DNA of 35,876 nt. Source: Abditibacteriaceae bacterium. GTDB lineage: Bacteria > Armatimonadota > Abditibacteriia > Abditibacteriales > Abditibacteriaceae. The stretch spans positions 1 to 35,876 of the forward strand of contig JANPJS010000235.1 of the NCBI GenBank assembly GCA_031425655.1. The letters run 5' to 3'. Below are positions 123 to 19,787 of the stretch, piece by piece. The notes beneath the pieces were generated by a model, which saw only the letters and a program-made list of their open reading frames with translations, made no database searches and was not told where the DNA came from. How positions within the stretch are numbered: position 1 is the first letter of the stretch; each line of letters opens with the position of its first letter. The translations under genes and the position numbers were made by a program.

Positions 123-167
123 TCAACTTACCTGAATCAAGCTCAATTTGCCGCCTCAGAAGCGGCG
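123..167 (-). pseudogene. Orphan duplicated 3' tail of recG
   Basis: 38/45 nt identical to 668-712. Translates RRF*GGKLSLIQVS* versus RecG RRFWGDKLSLIQVS*. Confidence 0.85.
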
Positions 168-177
168 GAACAGCATT

Positions 178-438
178 CTAACGCGGTTCATCCGGCGGAT
201 GCGGCGGAGGCAGGCGACGCTCGAATTTTAGCAGTTCGTTTTCGAGTTTCAGCAAAAGTTTTTCGTGTTCGTGGCGCCAATGGTCGCGGTCGCGCTCGAT
301 GGCGAAAAGAAAATGCTCCAACGCACGCGCTTGCTCATCCTGGCGCTGGCGCATCCTTTCAACTTCCTGGCGCAATTCAGAGACTTCTTGAGCCATCGTG
401 AATTGGCCTTTGAACCAGTCCAGCAATTGTTTCCACAT
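178..438 (-). CDS. Small hypothetical coiled-coil protein (86 aa)
   Basis: ORF track. Helical, E/R/L-rich; GGTG SD-like motif upstream; starts 3 nt after the stop of the upstream ORF. Confidence 0.65.
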   Translation of the reverse strand: MWKQLLDWFKGQFTMAQEVSELRQEVERMRQRQDEQARALEHFLFAIERDRDHWRHEHEKLLLKLENELLKFERRLPPPHPPDEPR

Positions 439-441
439 AAG

Positions 442-648
442 TCACCTTGCGCTTTGCAGTCGTGCGATGCCTTCATGCACTCGCGCCATTGTTGCATCAA
501 TGCGAGCATCAAGGCGCCGGCCTTCTTCGCGTTCACGCTTCATTTGAGTGAATAAGCGTTCGATTTCAATTTTCATGCGCTCGACTTCGGCTTTAGCCTG
601 CTCTTCAGTCATGTCGTCGGAATCAAAAGTCAGATTTTCGTTCATCAC
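442..648 (-). CDS. Small hypothetical coiled-coil protein (~68 aa)
   Basis: ORF track. GAGGTG SD right after the recG stop; heptad-like E/K/R-rich sequence. Confidence 0.65.
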   Translation of the reverse strand: MMNENLTFDSDDMTEEQAKAEVERMKIEIERLFTQMKREREEGRRLDARIDATMARVHEGIARLQSAR

Positions 649-667
649 GCCACCTCTAATGCTTATT

Positions 668-3175
668 TTAACTCACTTGAATCAAACTCAATTTATCGCC
701 CCAGAAGCGGCGCAGGGCGCGTTTTAAAGCGTCTTTTTCGTCTTCTAAATGCGGGTCGGACTGGACTAATTGAAAAGCAGCTTCGCGTGCTTGCTGGATG
801 ATTTCCACGTCTGAAATGATGTTGGCAAGGCGAAAATCGGGCATCCCGGATTGGCGCGTGCCGTAGAATTCGCCCGGCCCGCGCAATTGCAAATCGTGTT
901 CGGCGATCTCGAAGCCGTTTTGCGTTTTTACCATGACGCCGAGACGCGCTTTGCCTTCGTCGGTGCGCGGGTCACCCATCAGCACGCAAAACGATTTATG
1001 CACGCCGCGCCCGACGCGACCTCGCAATTGGTGCAATTGCGAAAGCCCGAAACGCTCGGCGTCTTCGATGAGCATAATCGTCGCGTTCGCCACGTCCACG
1101 CCGACTTCGATAACCGTTGTAGACACCAAAACGTCGTGCATTCCGGCGCGGAATAATTCCATTTGCTCGTCGCGTTCGATGACGTTCATCTGGCCGTGAA
1201 CCAGGCCGACACGCAAGTCGTGCAACTCTTCAGCGCGCAGGCGCTCGGCTAAAGCCGTCGCGGCTTTAAGATGCGCGATGGTTTCCGATTCCGATTGTTC
1301 GACAAGCGGGCAAACCACATAAGCCTGTCGCCCGCCTTTGACTTCGTCGCGCACCATTTTATAAGCGCGTTCGCGCGAATTTGGCTTGATGAGAACCGTT
1401 TTAATCGGCTGGCGGCCCGGCGGCAGTTCGTCTAAAACGCTCACGTCTAAATCGCCGTAAATCGTGAGCGCCATCGTGCGCGGAATCGGCGTGGCGGTCA
1501 TCACTAAAACGTCGGGACGCAGGCCGGCGATGCCTTTTTGCTGCAAAGCCGCGCGCTGCATCACGCCGAAACGATGCTGCTCGTCAATCACGCAAATGCC
1601 CAATTTGTTGAACTCGATGCCTTCCTGAATCAGCGCGTGCGTGCCGACGACAATCGAAACGCGACCTTCGCTCAAATCGGCTTGAATCCGCCGCTTGTTT
1701 TTGGCCTTGATACTGCCTTCGAGCAACGCCACCTCAATTCCCATCGGCTTGAACAAACGCGTCAGCACCGAAAAATGCTGCTCGGCTAAAATTTCCGTCG
1801 GCGCCAAAAGCGCGCCCTGATGGCCCGTTTGATGCGCCGTCCATAATGCGTAAGCGGCGACCATCGTTTTGCCGCTGCCGACATCGCCGTGCAGCAATCG
1901 GTTCATCGGACGCGGCGATTTTAAATCTTTGCGGACTTCGTTCATCACGCGCTTTTGCGCGCCGGTCAGCTTGAACGGTAGAAACTTCAAAAACTGCTTG
2001 ATTTTCTCGTCTTCGACGATGTGACGCAGCCCTATTTCTTCGGTGTGCGCGTTGATTTTCTTTTGCGCTAAAGCCACTTGCAAAAGGAACAATTCTTCAA
2101 AAACCAAGCGTTCGCGCGCGGCTTTTTGTTGTTCCCAACTGTCGGGAAAGTGAATCTGGCGCAGCGCCGTTTCGAGGCCGGGAAAGTTGTAATGCGCGAG
2201 AATCGAGTCGGGCAGCATTTCTTCCAAGTTTTCGCCGCACATTTCCAGCGCGTGATGAATCGCGCGGCGAATCGGGCCTTGATTCAAGCCTTCGGTCATC
2301 GGATAAATCGGCACGATGCGCCCGACTTGTAGCGTATCGTTTTCGCCTAAAATCTCAAATTCCGGCGCGTCAATTTGCAAAAGCCCGTTGAATTCGCCGA
2401 TTTTGCCATAAACGAATAATTGCATTCCCGGCTGAAACTGCTTTTCCCGATAAGGCTGATTCCACCATTGCAAATCGGCGCGACCTGAATCGTCGCCGAC
2501 GCGCACGCGCGTGATTTTGCGCCCGCTCATGCGCCCGCCCATGACTTTGGTTTGCGGCGGATACAAAACCGTCACCATGACCGCTTCTTTAGCGCCGACT
2601 TCGACCGAGGCCAGTTCTTTCACCACGCGCCGGTCTTCGTAGCGCATCGGAAAGTAATAAAGCAGATCGTAAACGCTTCGCAGTCCGAGCTTTTCCAACA
2701 GTTTGGCGCGGTTGGGGCCGATGCCTTTGAGATAAGTCAGTTCGGTGGAAAGATCAGGGCGAAAGTTCTTTTTAGGGGCTGGAGGCTGGGGACTGGGGGC
2801 TGGGAATTCGTTGCCGGTTGTCGGTTGCTGGCTACTCAATGCTGATTGCTCGATGCTGGTTGCCGGTTGCGTCTCGCCGTTTCCCAGCCCCCAGCCTCCA
2901 GCCTCCAGCCCCTCTAAAAGCCGCTGCGAATCGGCCACGATTTTCGCGCGCAGGGCGGCGTCGGCATCGACGTAGCGCCTCCACAAATCGCGCAAGCGTT
3001 GCAGCGAAAATTCGGCGTCCTGCGGCAATTCGCCAAGTTGAATCAGTTCGAGGGCGCGCTGTGTTTGCGCCAAAATGTGCGCGTCCAAGCCGCCAATCGC
3101 ACCGGCGTTGGCGTAATCGGATTGGATTTCCGCCGGCAGAGGACGGCGGATTTTGTCGAGGATTTCGTGGAGCAT
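668..3175 (-). CDS. recG: ATP-dependent DNA helicase RecG with N-terminal extension
   Basis: LKGIGP/DLLYYFPMRYED wedge region, MNRLLHGDVGSGKT (Walker A), DEQHRFGV, MTATPIPRT, QLHQLRGRVGRG, GFEIAEHDLQLRGPGE. Confidence 0.97.
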   Translation of the reverse strand: MLHEILDKIRRPLPAEIQSDYANAGAIGGLDAHILAQTQRALELIQLGELPQDAEFSLQRLRDLWRRYVDADAALRAKIVADSQRLLEGLEAGGWGLGNGETQPATSIEQSALSSQQPTTGNEFPAPSPQPPAPKKNFRPDLSTELTYLKGIGPNRAKLLEKLGLRSVYDLLYYFPMRYEDRRVVKELASVEVGAKEAVMVTVLYPPQTKVMGGRMSGRKITRVRVGDDSGRADLQWWNQPYREKQFQPGMQLFVYGKIGEFNGLLQIDAPEFEILGENDTLQVGRIVPIYPMTEGLNQGPIRRAIHHALEMCGENLEEMLPDSILAHYNFPGLETALRQIHFPDSWEQQKAARERLVFEELFLLQVALAQKKINAHTEEIGLRHIVEDEKIKQFLKFLPFKLTGAQKRVMNEVRKDLKSPRPMNRLLHGDVGSGKTMVAAYALWTAHQTGHQGALLAPTEILAEQHFSVLTRLFKPMGIEVALLEGSIKAKNKRRIQADLSEGRVSIVVGTHALIQEGIEFNKLGICVIDEQHRFGVMQRAALQQKGIAGLRPDVLVMTATPIPRTMALTIYGDLDVSVLDELPPGRQPIKTVLIKPNSRERAYKMVRDEVKGGRQAYVVCPLVEQSESETIAHLKAATALAERLRAEELHDLRVGLVHGQMNVIERDEQMELFRAGMHDVLVSTTVIEVGVDVANATIMLIEDAERFGLSQLHQLRGRVGRGVHKSFCVLMGDPRTDEGKARLGVMVKTQNGFEIAEHDLQLRGPGEFYGTRQSGMPDFRLANIISDVEIIQQAREAAFQLVQSDPHLEDEKDALKRALRRFWGDKLSLIQVS
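2774..2913. repeat. Heptamer-based inverted repeat embedded in frame in recG
   Basis: Arms 2774-2806 and 2881-2913 are 31/33 complementary (GGGGCTG/GAGGCTG units). The loop holds further GTTGCCG-like heptamers. Confidence 0.85.
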
Positions 3176-3185
3176 GAGAACCGCA

Positions 3186-3255: not shown

Positions 3256-3894
3256 TTAGCGAACGCGGCGCGGCATTTCCTGTCCCATGACATCTTGCGG
3301 CGGCGCTTCCTCGCGGCGGCGGTGCATCACCACGTGGCGGATTTCGCGGTTGGCGATGTTGTGCATTTTGCCTTCGCTATCGCGCAGCCACACGCCGCGC
3401 GGTGAAAATCGTTCGACCGCGCCTTGAACCGTTCCTCGCTGTGAATCAATTTCCAGCATATCGCCGACGGCAATCGCGTCCTCCGAGAGCAGCGAATAGC
3501 CTTGCACGGCATCTTGAATCATGCTCATGGCGCCGACGCCGAAGACTAAAATCAGCGCGCCGACCACGATGGCAACCGGCAAAACCGGAATCGAAAACAT
3601 CGGCATCGAACGCTCGAAAATGCTCAGCACGGCGATCATTGCGCCGATGTAACACAGCGTGCGAATCAGAGTTTTGGGCGTTTGGCGCAAATAAGTGCGC
3701 CGTTTCACGCGCCAGCTTTGCTCGCGTCCGGCATCAAGCGTAATCAGCGGCGTTACCAAACCTTCGACTTTGCGCGAAAGCCACCACGCCAGTCCCTCGA
3801 ACAGCGCCGCGATGAAAATCACCTGCACCGCAAGGCTGATGAGATTTTGCAGTTGAAAACTGTTTTTGAGCAGCGTTTGAAAATCGTAGTTCAT
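3256..3894 (-). CDS. Short MscS-family (mechanosensitive channel-like) membrane protein, 212 aa
   Basis: Three hydrophobic segments followed by an MscS beta-domain pattern (IQDAVQG...EDAIAVGDMLEI...GAVERFSPRGVWLRDSEGKMHNIANREI). Start reassigned to ATG 3894 because the longer ORF translates the upstream repeat. Confidence 0.75.
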   Translation of the reverse strand: MNYDFQTLLKNSFQLQNLISLAVQVIFIAALFEGLAWWLSRKVEGLVTPLITLDAGREQSWRVKRRTYLRQTPKTLIRTLCYIGAMIAVLSIFERSMPMFSIPVLPVAIVVGALILVFGVGAMSMIQDAVQGYSLLSEDAIAVGDMLEIDSQRGTVQGAVERFSPRGVWLRDSEGKMHNIANREIRHVVMHRRREEAPPQDVMGQEMPRRVR

Positions 3895-4033
3895 GGTGGT
3901 TGGTTGGGTTGTTGGTTGGGTGGTTGGGTGGTTGGGTGGTTCGGTGGTTCGGTGGTTGGGTGGTTCGGTGGTTCGGTGGTTCGGTGGTTTTGCGTTCTCA
4001 ACCACCCAACTACCTAACAACCCAACTACCTAA
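3895..4033. repeat. Octamer tandem repeat hairpin (GGTGGTTG/GGTGGTTC versus CAACTACC)
   Basis: About 11 G-rich octamers, a short loop, then about 4 complementary C-rich units. Ends directly at the MscS ATG. Confidence 0.85.
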
Positions 4034-4041
4034 CGCCCCAC

Positions 4042-4632
4042 TCAATCCGTCGTGCCCGCGATGGTTAATTTGCCCTGCTCAATGTTCAATTCTTCAACTT
4101 TGAGCGGCGCTTCCGTCAATCCCTGACTGAGGCGCTGATTGATGTCGCTTTCGACTTTATCTTTGATTGCGCCCGGCGCCGGCAAATGGCTGATGCTCAG
4201 CGAATCGGCCTGAAAAGTCACTTTTCCGTTTTGCGCTTTGAGCGTGCCGCTGAGCGAAGCGGGCAGGCTGGTGCCTTTGTAATCTACGGTTCCGGTGACG
4301 TTGACTACGCCGGGCGAAAGCGTCGCTTGCACGTTGTGAATCGGCGCGTTGCCGGGTTTCAAGCGCTCTTGCAGCATGGTATTAAGCTGCTCTTCGCTAA
4401 CCGTGACGCGAAAACGCACGTTTTTCTTCTGTTTGGCCGCTTCGCCGATGCCTTTCGCTTCTTCTTCAAGCTTTTGCACGTCGGCGCGGCGCCGCTCCTG
4501 TTCTCCGGCGGGCAACTGCGATAATGGAACCGGGCCGGAGCGCGGGCGGAGAAAAAGCAGCAGCAAAAGGGCGCAAGTGCCAAGCGCGATGATGCCGAAC
4601 TTGGATATTTTACCGTCGCGGCGATGATTCAT
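4042..4632 (-). CDS. Membrane-anchored protein, LmeA/DUF2993-like (YpmS-like) fold
   Basis: N-terminal TM helix. VTVSEEQLNTML and LKVEELNIEQGKLTIAG motifs typical of this beta-rich family. Start uncertain. Confidence 0.55.
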   Translation of the reverse strand: MNHRRDGKISKFGIIALGTCALLLLLFLRPRSGPVPLSQLPAGEQERRRADVQKLEEEAKGIGEAAKQKKNVRFRVTVSEEQLNTMLQERLKPGNAPIHNVQATLSPGVVNVTGTVDYKGTSLPASLSGTLKAQNGKVTFQADSLSISHLPAPGAIKDKVESDINQRLSQGLTEAPLKVEELNIEQGKLTIAGTTD

Positions 4633-5674: not shown

Positions 5675-5709
5675 AAAAAGCAAAGGCCCGGCTGACTTCA
5701 GCCGGGCCT
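5675..5709 (-). terminator. Intrinsic terminator hairpin, probably the original pyr operon terminator (may act bidirectionally)
   Basis: AGGCCCGGCTGA-CT-TCAGCCGGGCCT stem followed by a T-rich tract on the minus strand, 5 nt after the orphan carB stop. Confidence 0.75.
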
Positions 5710-5714
5710 CTTCG

Positions 5715-5811
5715 TTATTCGCTTTCGCTTTCGTAGCACGAATAATAATACGGCGTTTGTGCCTCGAATTCGCCGGCGCAGGTGTCCACCATTTTGTAAA
5801 CCGGCGCGATG
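5715..5811 (-). pseudogene. Orphan duplicated 3' tail of carB
   Basis: 87/97 nt identical to 7736-7832. Encodes [31 protein letters not shown] versus ...YEKESE*. Confidence 0.95.
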
Positions 5812-5844
5812 CAAGATTACTTACTGCGGGCCTGCCAACAATAT

Positions 5845-6507
5845 TTAAACAGTGCCTTCACTCAATAGAGCTTGAGCTTTATACAACCTATCATTACCTG
5901 CGTTGAATTCGTATTTCAAGTCAACCAACAAACCGTGCAAAGTGTAGATATGCCAACTCACAGGACGAAAGGCCAGAGTAGCACCGCGATCTCGCTGTGA
6001 ATCGCGTTCTAACTCAAAAGCGATGAGCAAATGATGTCCGTCGCGGGTGATCTTGGAATCTGCAGAAGGCGAAAGGAAAAACGAGCGATTCGTTGAAGTT
6101 CTACTTTTTGCGCTATAGGTTTTGCATTCCAGATAACACGTTTTCTCTTGGTCATAAACCACTTCAACGTCAGGATAGCCGGTGCTCTTACCTTTACCGC
6201 TTTTGGTTTTGGGCTTTGCAGCCTTTAAACCAGAATCGATTAAGGCTTGAAGCACAAAAGGCTCAATGGCGTTTCCCGCTTCGTTGGGGCGTCCGGCGTA
6301 AATGCCGATTTCATTGGCTGTGTGGGCAGCTTTATCTATCGCTTGCTCTAATTGCTGCAAAAGCGTGGCATCTGCCAGATTATTTTTGTCGAAACGAACA
6401 ACTTCATGCCCAGACAAAGCTTTAATGATGACCGCGAACGGCTGATTCTTAATGGGACGCAGAAATTCACGCACCATCGTTTCCAACTGCACTTTCTCTT
6501 GATCCAT
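5845..6507 (-). CDS. Putative type II restriction endonuclease (PD-(D/E)xK)
   Basis: GYPDVEV...YLECKT catalytic motif; 2 nt downstream of a DNA MTase; lower GC than flanks. Confidence 0.7.
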   Translation of the reverse strand: MDQEKVQLETMVREFLRPIKNQPFAVIIKALSGHEVVRFDKNNLADATLLQQLEQAIDKAAHTANEIGIYAGRPNEAGNAIEPFVLQALIDSGLKAAKPKTKSGKGKSTGYPDVEVVYDQEKTCYLECKTYSAKSRTSTNRSFFLSPSADSKITRDGHHLLIAFELERDSQRDRGATLAFRPVSWHIYTLHGLLVDLKYEFNAGNDRLYKAQALLSEGTV

Positions 6508-6509
6508 TT

Positions 6510-7739
6510 TTACCCTTTGCGAAAAACCATGATGCTCTCGCTTTGCATGATGTTGTAAAGACCAAAAATGGTCTTTTCAATTTGGCGAATGGGAGTTAGT
6601 CCCAATTTTCGGCAAGCTGCGTCGGCAAATTTCACGGTCGGCACTTCACAGGTTTGATAAACCGCGTTGCCTAAAATCAAAACGCAGTGCCCGCCGGGTT
6701 TCAAAACGCGCTCAATCTCCGACAACACCTGCAACATATCCTCATTAAAAAGTTGAATGCGTTCTTTTGGAGCACCACGTAAGCCGATAAAAGAAGACCG
6801 AGCCTCGTCCAAGTTACAGCCCAGCACCGAAAGTGCGTGCGCGTCGTTGGCAATATAATCCAGTGCGATGGAATAAGGTGGTGATGTAATAACCGCGTCT
6901 ACAGAATGGTTTTTCAGAGGCAAAGCACGCGCATCATCTTGAGAAATCTGTGCCGTCTTAGTTTGCAAACCAAGTTCTGCGCTTACCTCCGCATAATCTT
7001 TAGCTGAAGCTATCATGGCTTCCACATTGCGCGCAAAAGAGGCAACAAAGTCGCGGCCCCGCCGCGCCTTATCGCTGTGAGAAAGAAGTTCGGCTACCTG
7101 AAAAAAATCGCGTGCTGCGACATCGGGAATCCGACTGATAACCTCGTTCAACGTGCCCGTTTTTGAAGCATGAAACAGCGACGGCTCAACAGCCGTAACT
7201 ACCTCTTCTTTAACCGCCTCAATAGCTGGCAGCGCGGTATGCGATTGTGTTTTGACGCGGCCAAGCAGCGTGCAAACTGGTGAAATATCAAAACCAATGA
7301 AATCAGCGCCAATCAATTGAGTTTCCAGAGCAGCCGTGCCACTGCCCATGAACGGGTCTAAAACAGTATGTTCTGGCTTCACCCCAATTATATTGAGCAA
7401 GGCGCGAATCATTTGCGGGTGGAATTTGCCTTTGTAGGGATAAATCCAGTGTGTTAAAAATTGGTTGGGTGAGCGCGTGCGGTTGCGCGCAGTCAAAATT
7501 GCATAGTCGCTGCGCTCTCCATTTACCTTCGCAAAATAAGCGGTGCGTTGTCTCAGCAACAGTTCCTTCGAGCGACCGGATTCGACATCGTCAAAAGAAA
7601 AGTGGCGCAAATCCCCGTTGGTCTCGTAGCCGCCACACAATGTTTGTAATTCCCATTGCGCTAACTCCAACTCATAAATAAATTGCGTGTGACGGAAAAG
7701 TTCCGCTTCTTTACAAACAGAACGTGTTACTGCTGTCAT
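6510..7739 (-). CDS. Amino (probably N4-cytosine) DNA methyltransferase
   Basis: [20 protein letters not shown] (motif I), ITSPPY (motif IV, SPPY typical of m4C MTases), RVLKPGG. ATG overlaps the carB stop (ATGA). Confidence 0.85.
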
Positions 7740-9382
7740 TCACTTTCCTTTTCGTAGCACGAATAATAATAGGGCGTCTGCGCCTCGAATTCCCCCGCAC
7801 AGGTGTCCACCATTTTGTAAACCGGCGCGATGTTCCACGCTTTGCGCCGTTCGCGGATGGCATTTTCCCCAACGCCCATCAACTCGGCCAAATTGCGGTC
7901 GCTGAAGCCGTTTTTCTTGGCGTTGAGCAAGGTTTCTTTGGTCAAATCGTCGAACGGCTTGCCGCGCAGACTGGTTTCCAGCGCGACGAGCTTTTCAAGC
8001 TTGTGCAGAAACCAGCGATCCACGCGCGTCAGATCATGAATTTCGTCCAACATCATGCCGCGCCGCAGCGCTTCGGTGATTACAAAAAGGCGCTCGTCGG
8101 TGGGAGTTCGCAGCTTTTCTTCGATTTCCATTTCCGACAGGCGGCTCAAACCTTTGCCGCGCAAGCCGTAAACGCCGATTTCGAGCGAGCGAATCGCTTT
8201 CATCAAAGCGCCCTCGAAGCTGCGGTCAATGCTCATTACTTCGCCGGTCGCTTTCATTTGCGTAGTAATGCGCCGGTCGCTGCCGCCGAATTTATCGAAG
8301 GGCCAGCGCGGAATCTTAACTACGCAATAATCCAAAGCCGGCTCGAAACAAGCCAGCGTTTTTTTCGTGACGGCGTTGGGGATTTCGTCGAGATGCAAGC
8401 CAATAGCGATTTTGGCCGACACGCGCGCAATCGGATAGCCCGTCGCTTTGGAAGCCAGCGCCGAGCTGCGACTCACGCGCGGATTGACTTCGATGACGTA
8501 ATAGCGGCTCGAATGCGGGTCAAGCGCAAGCTGCACATTGCAGCCGCCTTCAATGCCCAACTCGCGGATGATCTCCAAGCTCGCGGTGCGTAGCATTTGA
8601 TATTCTTTGTCCGAAAGCGTTTGCGAGGGCGCGACCACGATGGAATCGCCGGTGTGAACGCCCATCGGATCGAAGTTTTCCATGTTGCAAATGGTGATCG
8701 CGGTGTCGTTGGCATCGCGCATCACTTCGTATTCGACTTCTTTCCAGCCGCGCAAATAACGCTCAAGCAGAATCTGGTGAATCATCGAGCGGTCAATGCC
8801 ACTGCGCACAAATTGCTCGAATTGCGCGTCGTTCCACGCGATGCCGCCGCCGGTTCCGCCCAATGTATACGCCGGGCGAATAATCAGCGGATAGCCGATT
8901 TCGTCGCGGAAAGTGCGCGCTTGTTCGGCGGTTTCGCAAATGGCGCTTTCGGGCACCGGCTGGCCGATGGCGATCATCGTTTCCTTGAACAAATCGCGGT
9001 CTTCGGCCTTTTTGATGGATTGCAGCGGCGTGCCGAGCAGCGTCACGTTGTATTTGTCCAAAATGCCCGCTTCGGCTAATTGATAGGCCATATTAAGCCC
9101 GGTTTGCCCGCCCAGCGACGGCAAAAGCCCGTCGGGGCGTTCGCGCGCGATGACTTGCTCAATGAAGCCGACCGTCAGCGGTTCGATGTAAACCGCGTCG
9201 GCGGTTTCGGCATCGGTCATAATCGTGGCCGGATTCGAGTTGACGAGCACAACCGACACGCCTTCCTCGCGCAACGAAGCGCAAGCCTGCGTGCCGGCGT
9301 AATCAAACTCGGCGGCCTGTCCGATGACAATCGGCCCGGAGCCGATGACCATCACTTTTTTGATGTTGGGATTTTTAGGCAT
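7736..9382 (-). CDS. carB: Carbamoyl-phosphate synthase large subunit, N-terminal half only (548 aa, split CarB)
   Basis: [63 protein letters not shown], ending [23 protein letters not shown]. No second ATP-grasp or MGS domain. Confidence 0.93.
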
Positions 9383-9387: not shown

Positions 9388-9957
9388 TCAAAAATTGGAA
9401 GGGGCAATGACCTTGCTGACAGTAACGGTTCGGGATTTTGTGCCGTCGAACGCACTCAGTTCGGCTGAAAACTTTACCTGCTTGCATTTTCTCATCGCGG
9501 ATAAATCGAAAATTTCTTCATGCACAGATTGGTTGCCCTCAAAACGGCGATGCACCCCTACGCCAAAGAACATTTGCCCTGTTTTTAAATCCGTTGCCTG
9601 TGCACGCAGGTTGGTGTAGCCGCATGGCGAATAAAATTTAGCCCGAAAGAGAATGCCATTTTGGGGCGCAATTTTCGGTGTAGGCCAGCCGGAAAGTTGC
9701 TTTAAGCCACTGACAGTCCCACCTTGAAGAAGGCGTCTCTGGGTTTCGCCTTCTTCATCGCGCCATTTTTGAATCGTTGTGGTGGCTGCCGGTTCATGGA
9801 CGACGACACATTCCACCACCCGCACGTTTTTTACGTCGTTCTGCGCTTTAATGGCGTCGAGTCGCCGTTGACGCCAACTCCAAGCACCGGCGAAAACAAT
9901 CACGGCCAACACAGGCAGCGTGAGCATCAAAAATGTTTTTGCCTCAACTCGTTTCAT
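9388..9957 (-). CDS. Hypothetical protein with N-terminal TM anchor
   Basis: ORF track. TM helix followed by WRQRR; ATGA overlap with the vapC stop. Confidence 0.6.
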
Positions 9958-10391
9958 AGTGCGCCTCGCAGAAGCGCGATGAAGCCTTCCTGTTCAAAAT
10001 GGTTGTCGTGCGTGAGAATCTCGAAGATGCCGAGTTCGCGCATGATCTGCATCGAAATGCAGTCGGTGAGCGAGTAATTTTTGTCGGGGCGTTGCGCGTG
10101 CAGGCTTAAGCCGGACATCAGCATTTCACGACTGGGGGGCAACACGAGCATCTCTGGTGACACAATCACCTGTCGCACGAAGTGATTGGCCTTTTGGCGC
10201 ATCCAATCGCCGCTCCGCGAGAAGAAATTGACGACTTCGATCAAGACCGCATCTGTCGTAAAAATCTGCGCGCCTTCAGTTTCCATCGAAGCAAACTGCG
10301 CGGCTTGGTGCAATTCATCGGTGCTATCAATAATGGCAACCCAATACGACGTATCGGCAAAAACCTGCCGCCTCGCTTGTTGCCCTATCAT
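9954..10391 (-). CDS. vapC: PIN-domain (VapC-family) toxin
   Basis: VFADTSYWVA...VLIEV...YSLTDCISMQIM...ILTHDNHFEQEGF acidic PIN motifs. Start set at ATG 10391, overlapping the antitoxin stop. Confidence 0.88.
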   Translation of the reverse strand: MIGQQARRQVFADTSYWVAIIDSTDELHQAAQFASMETEGAQIFTTDAVLIEVVNFFSRSGDWMRQKANHFVRQVIVSPEMLVLPPSREMLMSGLSLHAQRPDKNYSLTDCISMQIMRELGIFEILTHDNHFEQEGFIALLRGAL

Positions 10392-10594
10392 TTGTTGCCT
10401 TTCTCGCTTCGTTTGGGCCAGCCGTAGAGATAATGGTCGTGGTTTTCTGCACCATCGGTTGGCAACTGCGCCAAAACTTCCTCCGGTGCGTCGGCCATTT
10501 CCTCTATAATGCGCCTCCAAATCGGCACAAAGCCTTCAGGACGCGGCTTGTTGCTCTGCTCAGTCACGTAATCCAGCAAACTCTTCTCTTGCAT
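10388..10594 (-). CDS. Putative antitoxin of the PIN toxin
   Basis: 68 aa, directly upstream and overlapping vapC. C-terminal LPTDGAENHDHYLYGWPK motif recalled from small partners of PIN toxins. Confidence 0.75.
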   Translation of the reverse strand: MQEKSLLDYVTEQSNKPRPEGFVPIWRRIIEEMADAPEEVLAQLPTDGAENHDHYLYGWPKRSEKGNK

Positions 10595-10707: not shown

Positions 10708-11832
10708 TCACTTCCTCTCCTTCACCATCGCCGCAAAATCATCGAACAAATGCGCGTTATCCTTCGGGCCGGGGCACGCTTCAGGATGATATTGGACGGA
10801 AAACAGCGGTTTTTCGCGGTGGCGCAGGCCCTCGATGGTGTTGTCGTTGAGGTTGATATGCGTGATTTGCACGTCGTCGGGCAAACTTTCGGGCACGAGC
10901 GCGTAACCGTGATTTTGCGTCGTGATGTGAACTTTGCCCGTGATTAAATCCTTGACCGGATGATTGGCGCCTCTGTGGCCGAATTTCAGTTTGAAGGTTT
11001 CGCCGCCCAACGCGCGGCCCAAAAGCTGATGGCCCAAACAAATGCCGAACATCGGCATTTCGGGCTGCTGCGCTTGGATTTCCCTTATGACGCCCACTTC
11101 GTCGTCTAAAGAGCGCGGATCGCCGGGGCCGTTACTCAGCATCAAGCCGTCCGGCTGCCACGCCATAATTTCTTCGGCGCTGGCCGTGCAAGGCAAAACC
11201 ACGACTTCCAAGCCGCGCTCGCTCAAACTCCGCAAAATGTTGTATTTCGTGCCATAATCAAGCACGACCACGCGCGCTTCGGCATCCAACGGCATTTCCC
11301 ACTGGCCGGGCGGCGCGTTCGACTCGCCTTTTTGCCATTGATAGGCCTTGCTCGTCGTGACTTCGCGCACGTAAGTTCCGGCGTCGTAAGGCGGCAGATT
11401 TTTTAAGGTTTCAAGACCTTCTTCTGCCGTGTGTTCCGTGGTTATCATGCCCAGCATCACGCCGTAATCGCGCAGCTTTTTCACTAAGGCGCGCACGTCT
11501 ACGCCGCTGATGCCGGTGAGATTATTCTTCGTGAGATAATCGTCGCCGCTTTGCTGGCTGCGATAATTGGACGGCATATCGCACATTTCCTTGACGATAA
11601 AGCCCGCTACCTGCGGCCCGATGCTTTCGCCGTCTTCGGAGTTGAGACCGTAGTTGCCGATCAGCGGATAAGTCAGCGCCACCAACTGCCCGGCGTAACT
11701 GGGGTCGGTGAGAATCTCCTGATAACCCGTCATCGAAGTGTTGAAAACCACTTCGCCGGTCACCGTGCCCGGCGCGCCGGTCAGCGCGCCTTCGTAAATC
11801 GTGCCGTCAATAAGAATGAGTAATGCTTTCAT
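10708..11832 (-). CDS. carA: Carbamoyl-phosphate synthase small subunit
   Basis: GEVVFNTSMTGYQEILTDPSY, LSNGPGDP, FGICLGHQ, FGHRGANHPV, SVQYHPEACPGP. Start moved to ATG 11832. Confidence 0.96.
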   Translation of the reverse strand: MKALLILIDGTIYEGALTGAPGTVTGEVVFNTSMTGYQEILTDPSYAGQLVALTYPLIGNYGLNSEDGESIGPQVAGFIVKEMCDMPSNYRSQQSGDDYLTKNNLTGISGVDVRALVKKLRDYGVMLGMITTEHTAEEGLETLKNLPPYDAGTYVREVTTSKAYQWQKGESNAPPGQWEMPLDAEARVVVLDYGTKYNILRSLSERGLEVVVLPCTASAEEIMAWQPDGLMLSNGPGDPRSLDDEVGVIREIQAQQPEMPMFGICLGHQLLGRALGGETFKLKFGHRGANHPVKDLITGKVHITTQNHGYALVPESLPDDVQITHINLNDNTIEGLRHREKPLFSVQYHPEACPGPKDNAHLFDDFAAMVKERK

Positions 11833-11910
11833 TTTGGGTGGTTGGGTAGTTGGGTAGTTGGGTAGTTGGGTGGAGTAAAACCACCTAACCACCCAACTAC
11901 CTAACCACCT
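11833..11910. repeat. Octamer tandem repeat hairpin (GGTAGTTG / CAACTACC)
   Basis: Fills the whole DUF4139-carA spacer; same unit family as 3895-4033. Confidence 0.85.
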
Positions 11911-13537
11911 ACTCTGTCAGTCCCGTCAAAGTCATTTCGCGTGGGCATTCCACGACGTAATCGGAGTGCAATTCGCGTTTGGCACCGGCAGGTAAGGTCA
12001 ATTTCCACGTCATCACGCCTAAATCGTCGGTTTCGGGCTGCGGTTCGGCGCGATGTGGCTTGACTTTGATTTGCTCGTGGCGTGAAACCGGAATCTGATC
12101 GAGAATCGTCAGTTCCACGCGATGCGGTTTCAGGTTTTCGACTTCGATTTTGAAATCGTAACTTTGCCGCCGCACGTTGCCGATGAAATTTTTATCCACT
12201 TCGCGCCGTGCCAATTCTCGCTTGGCGCGCACCTGTTCGTCGGGGCCGAGAAAGAGCTTGAATTCCTGACCCGGCGCGGTTGCGTCGAGGTAAGCGGCAC
12301 CGACAAACGCGCCGTCGCGGAAGATGTTGGCCTGGCCGGCCAGCAGCGACAAACCGCTGTCGTTAAGAGCCGTGGCGCGCAAATAAGCCAGCGCGGCGCG
12401 GCGCGGAACCGCCTGATAATCAAGGCGAACCGGAAACTCGTGCTGCGCGATGGTCGCGCGGTGCGATTCGCCGTCGGCGGGAATGCTGTGGCGGCGCGGC
12501 AGATTGAAACTCACGGTCGCACCGCTGCTTTCGACTTGCGCGGTTTCGTATTCGGCTTCGACGGTCTGTTCCATGTAATCCACAGTCTGCATGGCTAAGA
12601 CGGCCTCTTCCGGTTCAGCGAGGCGTGGTTTTATGCGGCCCACCCTCGGCCTTTCCATCGCAGGCGCGGGCACTCCCGCGTAAAACGGACGCACAATATC
12701 TACGTAACGCGGCTCCAACTTCGGCGGCAGCGTGCCCATGCTGGGCCGCGCCGTCGAAAGCGTCAGTGCCACATCGTTCCAGTCTTCGCCGGTGTTTTGT
12801 CCGATTTTCGCTAAATACGTCAGCTCCAATTTGCCTTCCAAAACGCCGTCGGGCGAAGCGGGCGGCGAAAGCTGCACGCGCGCATCGTAAAGCGGCGCCC
12901 AACTCGCCTCAGGCACGGTGTAACTGATTTCCAAATCGAATTCGCCCGGCGCGGCGCTTTCCAGCGCGACGGTCACGCACTGTTCGCCGGCTTTGCGGGC
13001 GCCGGAAAACTGCTTGAGGCGCTGGCCGAGCATGACTTGCTTTTCGCCATTGGCGCGCTTTTGGGCTTCCAACGCAGCGCGCTGCTCGTTGATGCTTTCC
13101 ATTTGCGATTGCACGAAATCGAGCAGTTGCGCGGCGCTTTCCAGCGAAGTCGTGCCTTCGGCCAGGCCGCGCGCGAAGCGTTTGGCGGCGCTGTCGGCAA
13201 GCTCGCGCACGGTCGAAGCGCGGCGCTCTAAAATCTCGTCGCGCTTTTGCAGTTTTGCGCCTTCGTCTTGCGCCGCTTCGAGTTCGCTTTGCGCGGTGCG
13301 GGCTTCAGCGTGCGGCGTTTTTTCCAAAGGCCGAAAATGGCTTTCGACGCCGAGAATCTTCACCGCGACGGCGCCTTTACCTCCGGCGCGCAGCGAGTTT
13401 TCGTCGAGTCCGAGGGGCAAAGCGGCGATTGTGAACTCCTGCGCGCCACCTTCGAGCTGAAGCGAGGCGCGCCGCGTAATTTGCGCGCGGTCGGTGAAAA
13501 CCGTGACTTGTGAAATAGGCGCTTCGATATCGGGCAT
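11909..13537 (-). CDS. DUF4140/DUF4139 (MuiA-like) protein
   Basis: ISQVTVFTDRAQITR N-terminus, coiled coil, ASWAPLYDAR, QNTGEDWNDVALTLSTARP, ILDQIPVS. Confidence 0.85.
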   Translation of the reverse strand: MPDIEAPISQVTVFTDRAQITRRASLQLEGGAQEFTIAALPLGLDENSLRAGGKGAVAVKILGVESHFRPLEKTPHAEARTAQSELEAAQDEGAKLQKRDEILERRASTVRELADSAAKRFARGLAEGTTSLESAAQLLDFVQSQMESINEQRAALEAQKRANGEKQVMLGQRLKQFSGARKAGEQCVTVALESAAPGEFDLEISYTVPEASWAPLYDARVQLSPPASPDGVLEGKLELTYLAKIGQNTGEDWNDVALTLSTARPSMGTLPPKLEPRYVDIVRPFYAGVPAPAMERPRVGRIKPRLAEPEEAVLAMQTVDYMEQTVEAEYETAQVESSGATVSFNLPRRHSIPADGESHRATIAQHEFPVRLDYQAVPRRAALAYLRATALNDSGLSLLAGQANIFRDGAFVGAAYLDATAPGQEFKLFLGPDEQVRAKRELARREVDKNFIGNVRRQSYDFKIEVENLKPHRVELTILDQIPVSRHEQIKVKPHRAEPQPETDDLGVMTWKLTLPAGAKRELHSDYVVECPREMTLTGLTE

Positions 13538-15476: not shown

Positions 15477-16403
15477 CTAATCTTCGTCGCCGCCAAGCAG
15501 CAAATACAGCAGCGCCATGCGCACGGCGACGCCGTTGGTCACCTGCGGCAAGATCACGCTTTGCGCGCCGTCGGCGATGTCGTCCGCGATTTCCACGCCC
15601 CGATTCATCGGGCCGGGATGCATCACGATGGCGTCCGGCTTCGCTTTCGCCAAACGCCGCGCGTTCAGGCCGTAAAGTGCTGAATATTCGCGCACGCCGG
15701 GCAAATATACGCCGTCCATGCGCTCTTGCTGAAGTCGCAGCATCATCACGACATCGGCGTCCGCGACGGCTTTGTCGCAATCGGTTTCCAAACGCGCGCG
15801 GCCTGCAAACTCCTGCGGCAAAAGCGTGTCGGGGCCGCACAAAGTCACCTTCGCGCCCATCGTCGTCAGGCCGTAAAGATTGGAGCGCGCCACCCGCGAA
15901 TGCAGCAAATCGCCGACGATAGTGATGTTCAAGCCTTCGATCTGACCTTTGTTTTCCCGAATCGTCAGCATATCGAGCAAACCTTGCGACGGATGCTCGT
16001 GAAAGCCGTCGCCGGCGTTGATAATCTGGCCTTTGAGATAGCGGGAGGCGATTTCGGGCGCTCCGGCGTTGGGATGGCGAATAATCACGCAATCGGCGGT
16101 CAGCGCATCTAACGTGAGTAGCGTGTCTTTGAGGCTTTCGCCTTTGGCCGCCGAACTTTGCGCGACGGCGATGTTAATCGCTTCGGCGCTCATAATTTTG
16201 GCGGCAAGCTCGAAACTGGTGCGCGTGCGCGTCGAATTTTCAAAGAACAGCGTGATGACACTGCGACCGCGCAGCGTCGGCACTTTTTTCACGGGCCGCG
16301 CGAGAATTTCCTTGAAACGCGCCGCCGTATCGAGAACAAGTTCGATTTCCCCGGCGCCCATATCGCGCAGGCCCAAAATGTGTTTCCGTTGCAGCTTCTT
16401 CAT
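15477..16403 (-). CDS. pyrB: Aspartate carbamoyltransferase catalytic subunit
   Basis: [54 protein letters not shown]. Confidence 0.97.
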
Positions 16404-16473
16404 AGGGATGAGGGATGAGGGATGAGGGATGAGGGGCTGAAAATTTCATCCCTCATCCTTCCGCCCTCATCCC
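16404..16473. repeat. AGGGATG heptamer hairpin between pyrR and pyrB
   Basis: (AGGGATG)x4 ... (CATCCCT)n. The pyrR stop lies in the outer unit and the pyrB ATG abuts the other arm. Confidence 0.85.
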
Positions 16474-17033
16474 TTTTCGATCCTCACGATGTCTTCGCTA
16501 TCGAGTTCGCTGAGTGAAACCGTGACTTCTTCGTCGCGCGCCGTGGGCAGATTTTTGCCGACGAAATCGGCGCGAATCGGCAGTTCCCGATGGCCGCGAT
16601 CTACCAAAACTGCGAGTTGCACCATCGCGGGCCGTCCGTGGTCGTTGAGAGCGTCCAACGCGGCGCGCACGGTGCGTCCGGTAAAAAGCACGTCGTCCAC
16701 GATCACCACGATTTTGCCCCCCACCGAGAATTCGATTTTCGTTTGCTGCGGCGCGACGAGCCGCTTGCTGTAATCGTCGCGGTAAAGCGCCACATCGAGG
16801 GCGCCGACCGGCACATCCTGCTCTTCGATGTGCGCCAAATGCCCGGCGATACGCTCGGCGAGCGGCACGCCATGTCGGGGAATGCCGATCAGCACCACGT
16901 TTTCGATACCGCGATTGCGCTCGGCGATTTCGTGCGCCACGCGCTTCAAAGCCCGCGCGATGTCGCCGGCATCCATCAAAACCCCCGGCGGACGCTTATC
17001 TTCCGATTTTCGTTTGTCGTTGTGTGCCGTCAT
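16467..17033 (-). CDS. pyrR: Pyrimidine attenuation regulator / uracil PRTase PyrR
   Basis: [58 protein letters not shown]. Start at ATG 17033 or slightly downstream. Confidence 0.95.
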
Positions 17034-17139: not shown

Positions 17140-17171
17140 CCCTTGCGCGCCTCTCAGGACGCGCTTAAAAG
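17140..17171 (-). promoter_or_regulatory. PyrR-binding RNA loop (anti-antiterminator)
   Basis: Minus strand CTTTTAAGCGCGTCCTGAGAGGCGCGCAAGGG fits the PyrR consensus (UUUAA...GUCCnGnGAGGY...AAGG), upstream of pyrR. Confidence 0.88.
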
Positions 17172-17186
17172 TGCGAAATCGCAGCC

Positions 17187-17216
17187 AGTATAGCGTTTTC
17201 GACGGCCCAAAGTCAA
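17187..17216 (-). promoter_or_regulatory. Sigma70-type promoter of the pyr operon
   Basis: TTGACT-N18-TATACT on the minus strand, just upstream of the PyrR loop. Confidence 0.7.
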
Positions 17217-17258
17217 CGCGACCGATCCGGTTCGGGGCTTTGTCAAACGCCTCCATAC

Positions 17259-17381
17259 AATGGAACACGGGCTTCGCACACGGAAACGACACAGATTCAC
17301 ACGGATTTCTTTGGATTGATCCGTGAAAACCCGTGGCGTTTCGGGCGCCCTCTGGGCAGGATGCGAAGCCCGTGTTCCATT
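17259..17381. repeat. Long palindromic element with ACACGGA-type inner repeats
   Basis: 20-bp perfect outer IR AATGGAACACGGGCTTCGCA / TGCGAAGCCCGTGTTCCATT, with inner CACGGAT/ATCCGTG arms. Confidence 0.8.
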
Positions 17382-17514
17382 TGAAACTTGAACGGAGATA
17401 TGCCGCACGGCATCGAAGTGGCGTTCGACGGCATGATGATCGAGGTTTAGCCTTTTTGCGCCCCGTTTTGGCACTTGGGGAATCAAATAAAAGAACTTTC
17501 AGGGAGAAACTTTT

Positions 17515-18948
17515 ATGAGTGCGAAATTTAGTCGTCGGGAACTACTCAAAGGCGCGACGATTGGGGCGGCGGCTGTGGCGGGCGCCCGCGTTTTTAACAC
17601 GCCTTACATCATGGCCGCCGAACCGGGCAAAAAGCTGCGCACAGCAGTCATCGGCTGCGGCGGGCGCGGCACGGGGTTTCATGTGCCGCTCGCGGCACGC
17701 GAAAATCTGGTGGCTCTGGTGGACATGGACGACAGCAAAATCGCGGGCGCCATCAAAGAGGGCAAGGCGAAGCAAAAGGATTTCAACGCCGAAGCCGTCA
17801 AGGGTTTCAACGATTACCGCAAGTTTTTCGACGTGATGGCTAAAGAAGTGGACGCGGTTTTCATTGCCACGCCGAACCATCATCACGCCCTGCCGGCGAT
17901 GCTGGCGATGGAGCGTGGCATTGCCTGTTACGTGGAAAAGCCGATAGCTTACAACGTCCACGAATCGCGCCTTTTGGCCGAAGCCTCCAAAAAATACAAA
18001 GTCGCCACGCAAATGGGCAATCAGGGCCATTCGCAAGAAGGCTATCGCCGCTTAGTGGAATATATTCAGGCGGGCGCGATTGGCAACGTCACGCAGGTTT
18101 ATCATTGGAGCGATTGCGAAAACGGCGGCGTTGGGCCGCGTCCAGCGGCGGCTCCGGTGCCCGCCGGCCTCAACTGGGATAGCTTTATCGGCCCGGCGCC
18201 TTATCGTGAATTTCACGCGCAACTGCATCCGCATTCGTGGCACGGCTGGCACGATTTCGGTGGCGGCGCTCTGGGCAACCGGGGCTGTCATATCATGGAC
18301 GGCGCGCATTGGGCGCTTAACCTCAACGGCGCCTGCGCGATTGAAATGGAGGATGCCACCGGCGGCACCGATGAACGCTTTCCTCTGGCAGCGCGCATTC
18401 GCTGGGACTTCCCGCAGCGCGGCGCGATGCCGCCGGTTAAAGTCTGGTGGTATGATGGCCGTCGGAAAGGCGCGACGAGTAAAGAAACCGGCGCCACCGC
18501 CGACAGCGTAGTGGATGCCGACCGCAATCGCCCGCCCATTCTGATCGAACTGGAAAAGAAATACGGCAAAGAGCGTTTCGAGGGCAACGCCACGATTTAT
18601 GTCGGCGATAAAGGCATGATGTATACCGGCTTTTATGGTGGCGGCGCCCGCATTCTTCCTGAAGAATTGCATAAAGCCACGCCGGTGCCCGAAATGAAGT
18701 TCGAGCGCATCAAAGGCAGCCACACCGACGACTTTTTGCGCGGCGTGCGCGACCCGACTCACAAGCCGTGCGCCAATTTTGAAGTCTCGGCGCCCCTGAC
18801 CGAACTGACTTTGCTCGGCGTTTTAGCGGCGCGGCAGGGCGTCGGCAAGAAAATCGAGTGGGACGGCAACAAATGCACGAATATGCCCGCCGTCAACGCC
18901 GATTTGCAGCGCGAAGGCCGCGAAGGCTGGAAACTGCCGAAGATTTAA
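17515..18948 (+). CDS. Gfo/Idh/MocA-family oxidoreductase with Tat signal
   Basis: SRRELLK twin-arginine motif, VIGCGGRG, DAVFIATPNHHH, YVEKP, QMGNQGHS, GGGALGNRGCHIMD. Confidence 0.92.
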   Translation: MSAKFSRRELLKGATIGAAAVAGARVFNTPYIMAAEPGKKLRTAVIGCGGRGTGFHVPLAARENLVALVDMDDSKIAGAIKEGKAKQKDFNAEAVKGFNDYRKFFDVMAKEVDAVFIATPNHHHALPAMLAMERGIACYVEKPIAYNVHESRLLAEASKKYKVATQMGNQGHSQEGYRRLVEYIQAGAIGNVTQVYHWSDCENGGVGPRPAAAPVPAGLNWDSFIGPAPYREFHAQLHPHSWHGWHDFGGGALGNRGCHIMDGAHWALNLNGACAIEMEDATGGTDERFPLAARIRWDFPQRGAMPPVKVWWYDGRRKGATSKETGATADSVVDADRNRPPILIELEKKYGKERFEGNATIYVGDKGMMYTGFYGGGARILPEELHKATPVPEMKFERIKGSHTDDFLRGVRDPTHKPCANFEVSAPLTELTLLGVLAARQGVGKKIEWDGNKCTNMPAVNADLQREGREGWKLPKI

Positions 18949-18962
18949 AGATTCGGGGCAGC

Positions 18963-18998
18963 AAAAAGGGCGCAGTGCAAATTGCACTGTGCCCTTTT
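18963..18998 (+). terminator. Intrinsic terminator
   Basis: AAAAAGGGCGCAGTGCAA-A-TTGCACTGTGCCCTTTT. Confidence 0.8.
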
Positions 18999-19042
18999 GT
19001 TTTGGTGGTTAAAAAGTGCATCGCGCGGCTAAAATAATCGGT

Positions 19043-19276
19043 ATGGCAAAAGTTTACGAAGAAATCGTGGATTTTATCGCGGGCGGCACTACGCCGGGCA
19101 GCGTGATTGCCTTTCAGCCCTCGGCGGAAGCCAAAGCGCGGCTGGAAACGCTGGTGCAACGCCACAAAAACGCGACTCTCACATCTGACGAAGCAGCGGA
19201 GTTAGAGCATTTTCTCCACGTTGAACACTTGATGCGCTTAGCCAAAGCGCGAGCACGGCAACGTCTGGCGCAATGA
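19043..19276 (+). CDS. Small helical protein, putative antitoxin-like partner of the HNH nuclease
   Basis: 77 aa, ATGA overlap with the HNH gene; TAAAAT -10-like box 7 nt before the ATG. Confidence 0.7.
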   Translation: MAKVYEEIVDFIAGGTTPGSVIAFQPSAEAKARLETLVQRHKNATLTSDEAAELEHFLHVEHLMRLAKARARQRLAQ

Positions 19277-19689
19277 GTGAAACCTACATCAGCGCCGTAT
19301 TGCGCCGTTTAGTCGCCCAGCGTGCCAACAGGCGCTGCGAATACTGCCTGATTCACGAAGACGACACGTTTTTCGGCTGCCACATAGACCACATCGTCAG
19401 CGAAAAGCACGGTGGCGCGACTGTGGCGGAGAATTTAGCTTATGCCTGCGCGTTTTGCAATTTGCATAAAGGCAGCGATTTAGGATCGTTGACTGCTGAA
19501 GGCGAATTGTGCCGTTTTTTCAATCCGCGTGCGGACGTCTGGACCGAACATTTCGCGCTCGAAGAAGCCATTATTCAACCTCTGACAGCAATCGGAGAAG
19601 TCACGGCGCGCATTTTTCAGTTCAATCATCTCGACCGCTTATTGGAACGCGAAACGCTGATTGAAGCCAGACTTTATCCACGATTATAA
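19273..19689 (+). CDS. HNH endonuclease
   Basis: RCEYC...HIDHIVSEKHGG...NLAYACAFCNLHKG, FFNPR. Confidence 0.9.
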   Translation: MSETYISAVLRRLVAQRANRRCEYCLIHEDDTFFGCHIDHIVSEKHGGATVAENLAYACAFCNLHKGSDLGSLTAEGELCRFFNPRADVWTEHFALEEAIIQPLTAIGEVTARIFQFNHLDRLLERETLIEARLYPRL

Positions 19690-19711
19690 GCCTGTGACTG
19701 CACAATAAACC

Positions 19712-19787
19712 CACAAATATGCCCGCCGTCAACAACGATTTGCAGCGCGAAGGCCGCGAAGGCTGGAAACTGCCGAAGTTGGGCTGA
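19712..19787 (+). pseudogene. Orphan duplicated 3' tail of the Gfo/Idh/MocA gene
   Basis: 19712-19778 is 64/67 identical to 18876-18942. TNMPAVNNDLQREGREGWKLPKLG* versus TNMPAVNADLQREGREGWKLPKI*. Confidence 0.95.

Follow-up and report, generated by a model that had tools for sequence, protein, structure and literature searches.

The stretch of DNA analysed here (from here: the window), 35,876 nt in length, is the entire contig C235 of the 5.98-Mb, 327-contig assembly (G000) of a bacterium of the family Abditibacteriaceae (phylum Armatimonadota), which is 97% complete and 0.45% contaminated. A repeat search along the window found the same layout at three genes, recG, carB and a gene for a Gfo/Idh/MocA oxidoreductase: the intact tail of the gene is followed by a block of cargo genes and this, in turn, by an orphan copy of the tail. 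All cargo genes at the three sites are co-oriented with their host gene, and the Pfam labels RecG, CPSase_L, GFO_IDH_MocA, N6_N4_Mtase and HNH were confirmed. This layout had been described in a prediction made from the sequence alone (from here: the original prediction), and all of its repeats were recovered in place. The orphans begin 10, 33 and 13 nt past the last cargo stop, in agreement with the predicted 10 to 33 nt; the predicted orphan lengths of 45 and 97 nt are right for recG and carB, whereas the Gfo orphan, given as 67 nt, runs 85 nt to a stop at 19787.

The first host gene, recG, is intact on the minus strand (668 to 3175; Pfam RecG_wedge, DEAD, Helicase_C and RecG_dom3_C). Its working tail (668 to 712, minus strand; repeat D18) translates as RRFWGDKLSLIQVS followed by the stop codon. 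The 500-nt cargo consists of two open reading frames (ORFs) on the same strand, the first of 68 aa and without a family (442 to 648), beginning 19 nt past the recG stop, and the second of 86 aa (178 to 438), ending 10 nt before the orphan. The 86-aa protein matched no named family, but its own unnamed family is present in 10 of 30 relatives and at four other spots in G000. The orphan tail (123 to 167, minus strand) is 86% identical to the working tail and carries a premature TGA besides its own in-register TGA; the aligned repeat, 670–712 versus 125–167 on the minus strand, is 43 nt long, or 45 nt counting the stop. Beyond recG lies a gene that we take from its motif to be rsmD-like, and the gene content of the interval between the two differs in most family members. 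Orphan recG tails with other cargo and other lengths occur in 4 of 21 relatives, and across genomes, the window included, recG orphans measure 45, 51, 56, 80, 92 and 28 nt. Among 68 recG loci from metagenomes there was one real orphan, a repeat of the locus in the relative G005; three AT-rich matches were judged false.

The second host gene is the N-terminal half of carB (7736 to 9382, minus strand; ~548 aa, intact; Pfam CPSase_L_D1/D2/D3). The stop of its working tail (7736 to 7832, minus strand) overlaps the start of the first cargo ORF (ATGA). The cargo of 1924 nt encodes, on the same strand, a type II DNA methyltransferase (6510 to 7739) and a type II restriction endonuclease (5845 to 6507; PADLOC PDLC03511, E 5.8e-28). 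The orphan tail (5715 to 5811, minus strand), which begins 33 nt past the last cargo stop, is 90% identical and has its own stop, TAA; the repeat as aligned spans 98 nt (7735–7832 versus 5714–5811, minus strand), with seven silent codon differences and one non-silent. A terminator-like hairpin, a consensus match only, directly follows the orphan (5682 to 5711). No carB orphan was found within 1.5 kb in 23 relatives. The methylase had no match in 26 other family genomes and was matched in 14 of 300 sampled genomes of the phylum. The carB reading frame itself stops after the oligomerisation domain, at the same place as in relatives with a readable tail, and the C-terminal half falls outside the window; hence, judging by the gene structure, the large subunit of carbamoyl-phosphate synthase seems to be split in this family.

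The third host gene encodes an intact Gfo/Idh/MocA oxidoreductase (17575 to 18948, plus strand, with an alternative ORF start at 17515), with the working tail at 18867 to 18948 (plus strand; repeat D6). Between its stop and the cargo there is a terminator-like hairpin at 18964 to 18998 (plus strand), again a consensus match only. The 754-nt cargo holds a gene for a 77-aa protein (19043 to 19276, plus strand), antitoxin-like if judged by its position, and one for an HNH nuclease of 138 aa (19273 to 19689, plus strand; Pfam HNH, E 5.8e-11), homologs of which are present in 9 of 30 relatives. The orphan tail (19703 to 19787, plus strand) begins 13 nt past the last cargo stop and is 92% identical over 76 nt (18867–18942 versus 19703–19778, plus strand); it ends in KLPKLG, the working tail in KLPKI. 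Hence, two of the three cargoes in the window are nuclease modules, as predicted: the restriction-modification (RM) pair recognised by PADLOC and the HNH pair recognised by Pfam.

The original prediction had suggested a genome-wide process and a scan for recurring tails. We called 4439 genes in G000 with a dicodon model of our own, listed direct repeats up to 15 kb apart by a k-mer scan and sorted them into tail, head and mirror positions. An initial BLAST scan with its own extension was dropped because close repeats aligned to themselves. A tail recurring downstream as a non-genic copy was found in 50 pairs at 43 genes, versus three in the mirror position. Five of these pairs were removed before the curated counts: C48 and C319 are repeat elements in doubtful ORFs, C193 has no silent and five non-silent differences, the host of C326 is itself a small mobile-looking gene, and the repeat of C92 measures 22 nt. 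This left 45 pairs at 38 genes, with repeats of 27–199 nt (median 70; longer than 30 nt in 44 of the 45), tails 79–100% identical (median 92%) and inserts of 202–6249 nt. The similarity between the copies ends at the stop codon (median −2 nt, range −37 to +23). The hosts are unrelated and include pyrG, hflX, glnA, pyruvate carboxylase (pyc), secA, prfA, fucI, a proteasome ATPase and mrp, as well as genes for a SUF protein, a penicillin-binding protein, Rsr and others. At five genes the orphans are stacked: two each at mrp, glnA, pyc and prfA, and four at the alpha-galactosidase gene aglA (C70; L064:1454–4431), where each orphan (110, 64, 83 and 85 nt) comes with a different cargo. Terminators behind the working stop and those behind the last orphan did not differ in strength (17 versus 17 of 38). 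Among 157 tiles of 20 kb, 130 had no case, 26 had one and one had three. The window is that densest tile, whereas 29 genes per 3.1 Mb is the average; the predicted genome-wide occurrence is borne out, but a density of three per 20 kb overstates it about sixteen-fold.

Gene starts are duplicated as well. In the mirror-image class, heads recur upstream in 16 cases versus six in the mirror position, although a few of these could belong to neighbouring paralogues that the gene caller missed. Because these heads show the same silent bias as the tails (see below), the process is not specific to 3′ tails, contrary to what had been proposed; it acts on whichever gene end borders a variable slot, tails being about three times as common as heads.

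The differences between the two copies are informative about their origin. Over all 50 pairs, mismatches at codon positions 1, 2 and 3 number 61, 45 and 175. In the curated set there are 146 silent versus 83 non-silent codon differences, corresponding to a ratio of non-silent to silent divergence (pN/pS) of 0.167, versus 0.5 expected of an exact copy that merely decayed (p = 2e-16). The ratio is 0.18 in pairs at least 93% identical, 0.19 with all 50 pairs, 0.20–0.21 for the heads, and 0.15 over 12 pairs from relatives, two of which are false matches to repeat elements. Some pairs are 98–100% identical. In-register stops differ in 20 of 32 pairs, as they do between orthologues. Since the differences are mostly silent, the tail copies must have diverged as working alleles in different lineages and were brought together by exchange between lineages, which agrees with the predicted donor tail from a relative. 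Five orphans have gained premature stops, therefore these are now decaying. The silent bias alone does not prove how a cassette first arose, as later exchange of alleles could produce the same bias.

One joint preserves both parents. Contig C267 (L076:191–2960) carries, in order, a GDSL gene, a 344-aa ORF, a truncated GH53 head, the orphan GDSL tail, a 115-aa ORF and an intact GH53 gene whose signal peptide differs from that of the truncated head; the GH53 head and the orphan GDSL tail overlap by four shared bases. In the congener G002 the GH53 head comes straight after GDSL and the 344-aa ORF, and in the congener G003 another gene stands between GDSL and GH53. Because congeners hold both parental arrangements, we read C267 as two alleles of one slot fused through a single illegitimate joint, with the other side held by homology. 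It is the most direct mechanistic evidence available, a single case that is compatible with a linear or a circular donor.

Neither inspection by eye nor BLAST of the flanks revealed a motif or element shared by the 45 joints. Only a few cassettes contain palindromic repeats, and C130 holds little beyond a duplicated palindrome. A permissive gapped realignment ran on into unrelated sequence, and a strict one was used instead. Several joints are tight. At pyrG, a HicAB pair begins 13 nt past the host stop and the orphan starts on a base that still belongs to the HicA stop, the HNH pairs of the window and of G009 end 13 and 9 nt before orphans of different genes, and G017 has a 100% identical pair with a gap of 5 nt; in relatives, five of 12 pairs are tight. 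The joints tend to spare genes, as those abutting an open coding-like frame account for 6 of 45, versus 55–79% in two nulls.

No integrase, transposase or recombinase domain was found in the 97 of 109 cargo ORFs that were scanned or in the six window ORFs (six ORFs of at most 50 aa were left unscanned), which is in line with the predicted absence of an integrase. The genome encodes six tyrosine recombinases and six proteins with a resolvase domain; none lies inside a bracket, the nearest tyrosine recombinases are ~22 kb from the sites, and a large serine recombinase gene lies 3.4 kb past the last aglA orphan, outside the brackets. The cargo had been expected to consist mainly of defence and toxin-antitoxin (TA) genes, but a recognisable TA, RM or nuclease gene is present in only 11 of 45 cassettes (four PIN, HicA, HicB, PemK, HNH and three of RM type, namely carB, one with NotI plus a methylase and a third with a methylase). 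The others carry carbohydrate enzymes (glycoside hydrolases), TPR or two-component genes, unknowns or almost nothing, and several cassettes are oriented against their host.

Cargo families were captured repeatedly at different genes, while most of their copies have no bracket. The 86-aa family of the recG cargo is bracketed by the ends of other genes in 3 of 16 loci of relatives and the HNH pair by the end of another gene in 1 of 11. Going by their motifs, the hosts at these loci are presumably fusA-, truA- and alkyltransferase-like. Among 94 loci around homologs of the window methylase there were two tail-type repeats versus one in the mirror position, and a homolog in a Dehalococcoidales contig (L173:3385–5745) is bracketed by a 54-nt, 91% identical copy of another gene's tail. 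Two congeners carry the HicAB pair of pyrG at other places, and the stretches compared show no tail bracket around it. In G002 it lies downstream of the same alpha-galactosidase gene and is bracketed by a 96-nt, 92% identical repeat that looks non-coding (L574:808–904 and 1767–1862). A −10-like hexamer precedes the first ATG of HNH and HicAB pairs by ~7 nt (window 19028–19045; L501, L503, L504, L574 and L575), which suggests leaderless transcripts; the pyrG copy of HicAB is without it.

The pattern is not confined to G000, which is richer in it than most of the sampled relatives. Sampled 200-kb stretches of four relatives contained 0, 1, 0 and 1 real tail cases, and 318 kb of non-randomly chosen contigs of G002 contained two. 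Over 530 non-self loci (3.5 Mb with overlaps) we counted 12 distinct tail cases, two of them false, versus one in the mirror position. At the same genes, independent orphans with other cargo were seen in 3 of 41 congener loci, and at secA in G001; within 1.5 kb no orphan was found for glnA (0 of 23 relatives), pyc (0 of 18) or prfA (0 of 26). No conspecific strain was found: the best RecG relatives in metagenomes are 83% identical, and other sequencing runs share at most 9% of words, in short pieces only. Congeners have empty-like flanks at secA, aglA, an ABC transporter gene and, weakly, pyrG, but at the three window genes they have single tails with unrelated flanks. The proposed replacement of a resident tail by an incoming one is plausible at the former four, where the 3′ flank of the congener resembles the sequence past the orphan; at secA, for instance, that sequence continues as in the single copy of the congener. 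It is not general, as the congener flank resembles the sequence past the working stop at the proteasome ATPase gene and glnA, and both at one site. An attempt to polarise the working and orphan copies with three congeners failed, since these, at 75–90% identity, lie outside both copies as outgroups.

We consider it probable that the duplicated ends arise by homologous recombination on one side combined with a microhomology joint on the other, and that the cassettes then spread with the orphan as a short arm. A slot beside a conserved gene would exist as alleles, gene A with block 1 and gene A with block 2. DNA of a close relative, ~80–100% identical in coding sequence, would recombine homologously on one side only, and the other end of the donor would join over a few shared bases 27–200 nt inside the gene end. 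Both blocks would be retained and the gene end would then be present twice, once working and once orphaned. The donor could be a linear transforming strand, as in homology-facilitated illegitimate recombination (HFIR), or a recircularised fragment entering by a single crossover, with the same product. The bracketed block may later be lost by crossover between the copies or be passed on by ordinary recombination, for which the gene body would provide the long arm and the orphan the short one, and with repeated events as many as four orphans would accumulate at a single gene. Beyond what was observed, we infer entry by natural transformation, the sequence of the steps, the spread via the orphan arm and a protection of TA and RM blocks by addiction. 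What we observed, and on which this reading builds, are the architecture and its frequency, the silent-biased divergence, the mirror-image class of heads, the recombinase-free cargo, the one microhomology joint and the reuse of cargo families. The original prediction had named two routes, one-sided homologous recombination and a small circle that enters by single crossover, and in the light of C267 and of the parts of PMC2935791 and PMC3240628 available to us one or the other of these is the best mechanism.

In Escherichia coli, Amarir-Bouhram et al. (2011) obtained duplications of 109–950 bp of the anchor from one-sided homology as the main product, in 56 of 60 clones, and HFIR combines one homologous anchor with one joint over 3–10 bp of microhomology (PMC3240628, as far as its accessible text goes). 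At C267 the shared bases number 4; it is the sole joint with both parents readable, the other 44 being unreadable. Classical HFIR, as presented there, differs in that a deletion of similar size accompanies the insertion, while here the gene end is duplicated instead, and a bias of the joints towards stop codons, seen here, is not reported in that portion of the source. A related outcome has been described for rhs and type VI secretion system (T6SS) effector-immunity loci, where a 3′ end, with the genes behind it, comes in by homology and pushes the old end downstream as an orphan, and arrays are formed; a circular intermediate was proposed for rhs (Jackson et al. 2009, PMC2935791) and HFIR for T6SS (Kirchberger et al. 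2017, PMC5361080), according to the sections available of these papers. Conserved orphan starts of variable length and arrays, such as the four at aglA, are common to both. However, the rhs payload in PMC2935791, so far as it could be consulted, is a new non-homologous toxin tip of one family, whereas here the tails are homologous and the payload is an unrelated passenger block; the hosts here are housekeeping and metabolic genes, so these loci do not belong to rhs.

Variable genes between conserved ones are also known from the minimal mobile elements of Neisseria, which are exchanged by homologous recombination in the flanks (PMC3787668, in its available part). The variable content of the recG–rsmD interval in this family resembles them, but replacement by double crossover, as described there, leaves no duplicated end, whereas the cases here are additive. 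Elements with attachment (att) sites in gene 3′ ends are different too, as no integrase lies within the cassettes and the crossover position is not fixed, given the varying lengths at aglA and recG. The accessible parts of PMC2884548 and PMC3784515 provide further background.

Several points weigh against this combination of one-sided homology and a microhomology joint. There is no visible deletion at the sites, although in HFIR the DNA lost is normally of about the same size as the insert (PMC3240628, in the text available). A recognisable piece of the donor's next gene is kept at one of 45 joints, and microhomology was read once, both at C267. Random joints should usually cut a gene, yet 30 of the 45 fall in the range −30 to +50 nt around a co-oriented stop (null 17%) and 20 within 15 nt (null 7%); for such clustering, joints would have to be trimmed, selected or cut where the homology ends. 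Fragments with a longer homologous stretch on their second side may end up as plain replacements that leave no scar, strand exchange might stall and be followed by a cut at the border, or junk might be trimmed while cassettes with a usable arm spread on. The last of these predicts orphans with older-looking 5′ ends, but the 5′ ends show no stronger decay, contrary to an old arm refreshed from the 3′ side. Congeners side with the working copy at 45 sites and with the orphan at 27, with a tie at 34, so the copies are not polarised; 10 of 16 sites match neither flank, and no conspecific empty allele was available. The genes comEC and dprA are present, but both are also in most control genomes and indicate capacity for competence only.

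Misassembly of two co-occurring strains is the least credible of the alternatives. Although the 327 contigs were assembled from a metagenome and the runs contain related strains, one unitig of the probable source run (positions 55–1504, depth 13.5) spans both recG copies and another (5782–7772, depth 10.2) both carB joints, with neighbouring unitigs at depth 10–13; the Gfo cargo is covered by no listed piece. The orphans bear nonsense and frameshift changes, and near-complete relatives, e.g. G016 with eight contigs, show the same pattern. No assembly chimera is evident, although unitigs of the source run are non-independent evidence. Integrative elements are known to restore the ends of their target genes, and the brackets could thus be remnants of decayed integrase-bearing islands, a reading that the recombinases of the genome, including the one near aglA, would favour. 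We regard it as very improbable and largely refuted, in view of the recombinase-free cargo, the 38 different targets, repeat lengths that vary at one gene, the existence of heads, young near-identical pairs with 0.4–0.7 kb of cargo and the distance of the tyrosine recombinases.

The closest precedent in appearance is the insertion with long target duplication of Furuta, Abe and Kobayashi (2010), who described integrase-free RM inserts below 20 kb between unique direct repeats above 30 bp, often spanning a start or stop codon and thereby sparing the target gene, mostly in naturally competent species, and attributed them to breaks made by the RM systems (PMC2853133, in the parts available, where RM and HNH cargo is mentioned). 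Hence, the architecture itself is not new. The cassettes share its repeats above 30 bp and inserts below 20 kb without a mobility gene; the published repeats range from 45–47 bp (Table 2) to ~400 bp (Table 3), some pairs here are nearly identical, and three cassettes carry RM genes. The carB cassette fits that description in every respect short of a conspecific empty site. As a general explanation, long target duplication is nevertheless improbable: most cassettes carry no nuclease and most cargo is non-RM, a single genome has ~38 sites with tails and as many as 16 with heads, some of them stacked, and the two copies have diverged as working alleles (pN/pS 0.17), all of which goes beyond the published cases as far as these sections show. 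In addition, the silent bias is equally strong in the most similar pairs, the similarity ends at the stop codon and not at random places in the 3′ flank, and the C267 joint includes the next gene's head, whose signal peptide is different. The finding works like rhs displacement and has the look of long target duplication.

A dedicated capture pathway that recognises gene boundaries would account for the clustering at cargo stops. An unrecognised trans-acting recombinase, a flap nuclease with ligase or an RNA-templated step would cut cargo at stop codons and dock it on the ends of genes, in the manner of an integron that lacks att sites; the overlap of the HicA stop with the pyrG orphan, the two HNH pairs and the gap in G017 speak for it. 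We find such a pathway doubtful, because there is no joint motif, neither Ku nor a reverse transcriptase (RVT_1) had a match in the 97% complete genome, several cassettes are anti-oriented, heads are duplicated too, C130 holds hardly more than its palindrome and the tight joints in relatives amount to 5 of 12. The broader idea of a recombinase-free cassette system, in which a boundary-aware step joins the cargo stop to a short conserved gene end as a built-in homology arm, so that promoter-poor TA, RM and metabolic cassettes move between core genes and stack like integron cassettes, is rather unlikely too, though somewhat less far-fetched; if true, bacteria of many phyla would be gaining genes by a general route that has been overlooked.

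Some further features were noticed. Between carA and carB, window positions 9954–10594 contain a 68-aa gene and a PIN-domain gene without a duplicated gene end; as a DNA query this segment was unmatched in five relatives. Inverted arrays of short tandem repeats (7- and 8-mers) are intergenic and some lie beside small ORFs (window 3884–4045, 11826–11922, 16392–16483, 23112–23167, 25838–25923 and 27040–27221). REP-like palindromes are located at 1–46, 29634–29756 and 31010–31115; one such family has many copies in the genome and is also found at the start of a few cassettes. SecA of C306 (L079:101–6874) has 2257 aa with three separate matched stretches, suggestive of inteins or other insertions. 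Also encoded in the genome are a pupylation-type proteasome ATPase, an Rsr (Ro60) protein and a proteasome-subunit/AAA pair (L059, L073 and L085; C34, C249 and C48).

In its general form the architecture has already been published for RM systems and for rhs loci. We found no literature on gene-end duplication as a genome-wide pattern at housekeeping genes in a search that had most subscription journals outside its reach; further cases at gene ends may be shown in the supplementary figures of PMC2853133. What is added here is the scale (at least 38 genes), the pN/pS proof that the copies were working alleles, the symmetry of heads and tails, and the closeness of the joints to stops. Duplicated gene ends are a real and frequent feature of this genome and extend a type of insertion that was already known. 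They caution that an orphan gene end is not necessarily the mark of a lost prophage or of misassembly. Additive gene gain at element-free sites is less well described than replacement between conserved flanks, and a single genome is enough to count these scars, silent divergence dates them and each can be assigned to a gene end, which makes them a measure of additive recombination and allows HFIR to be tested against the integration of circles.

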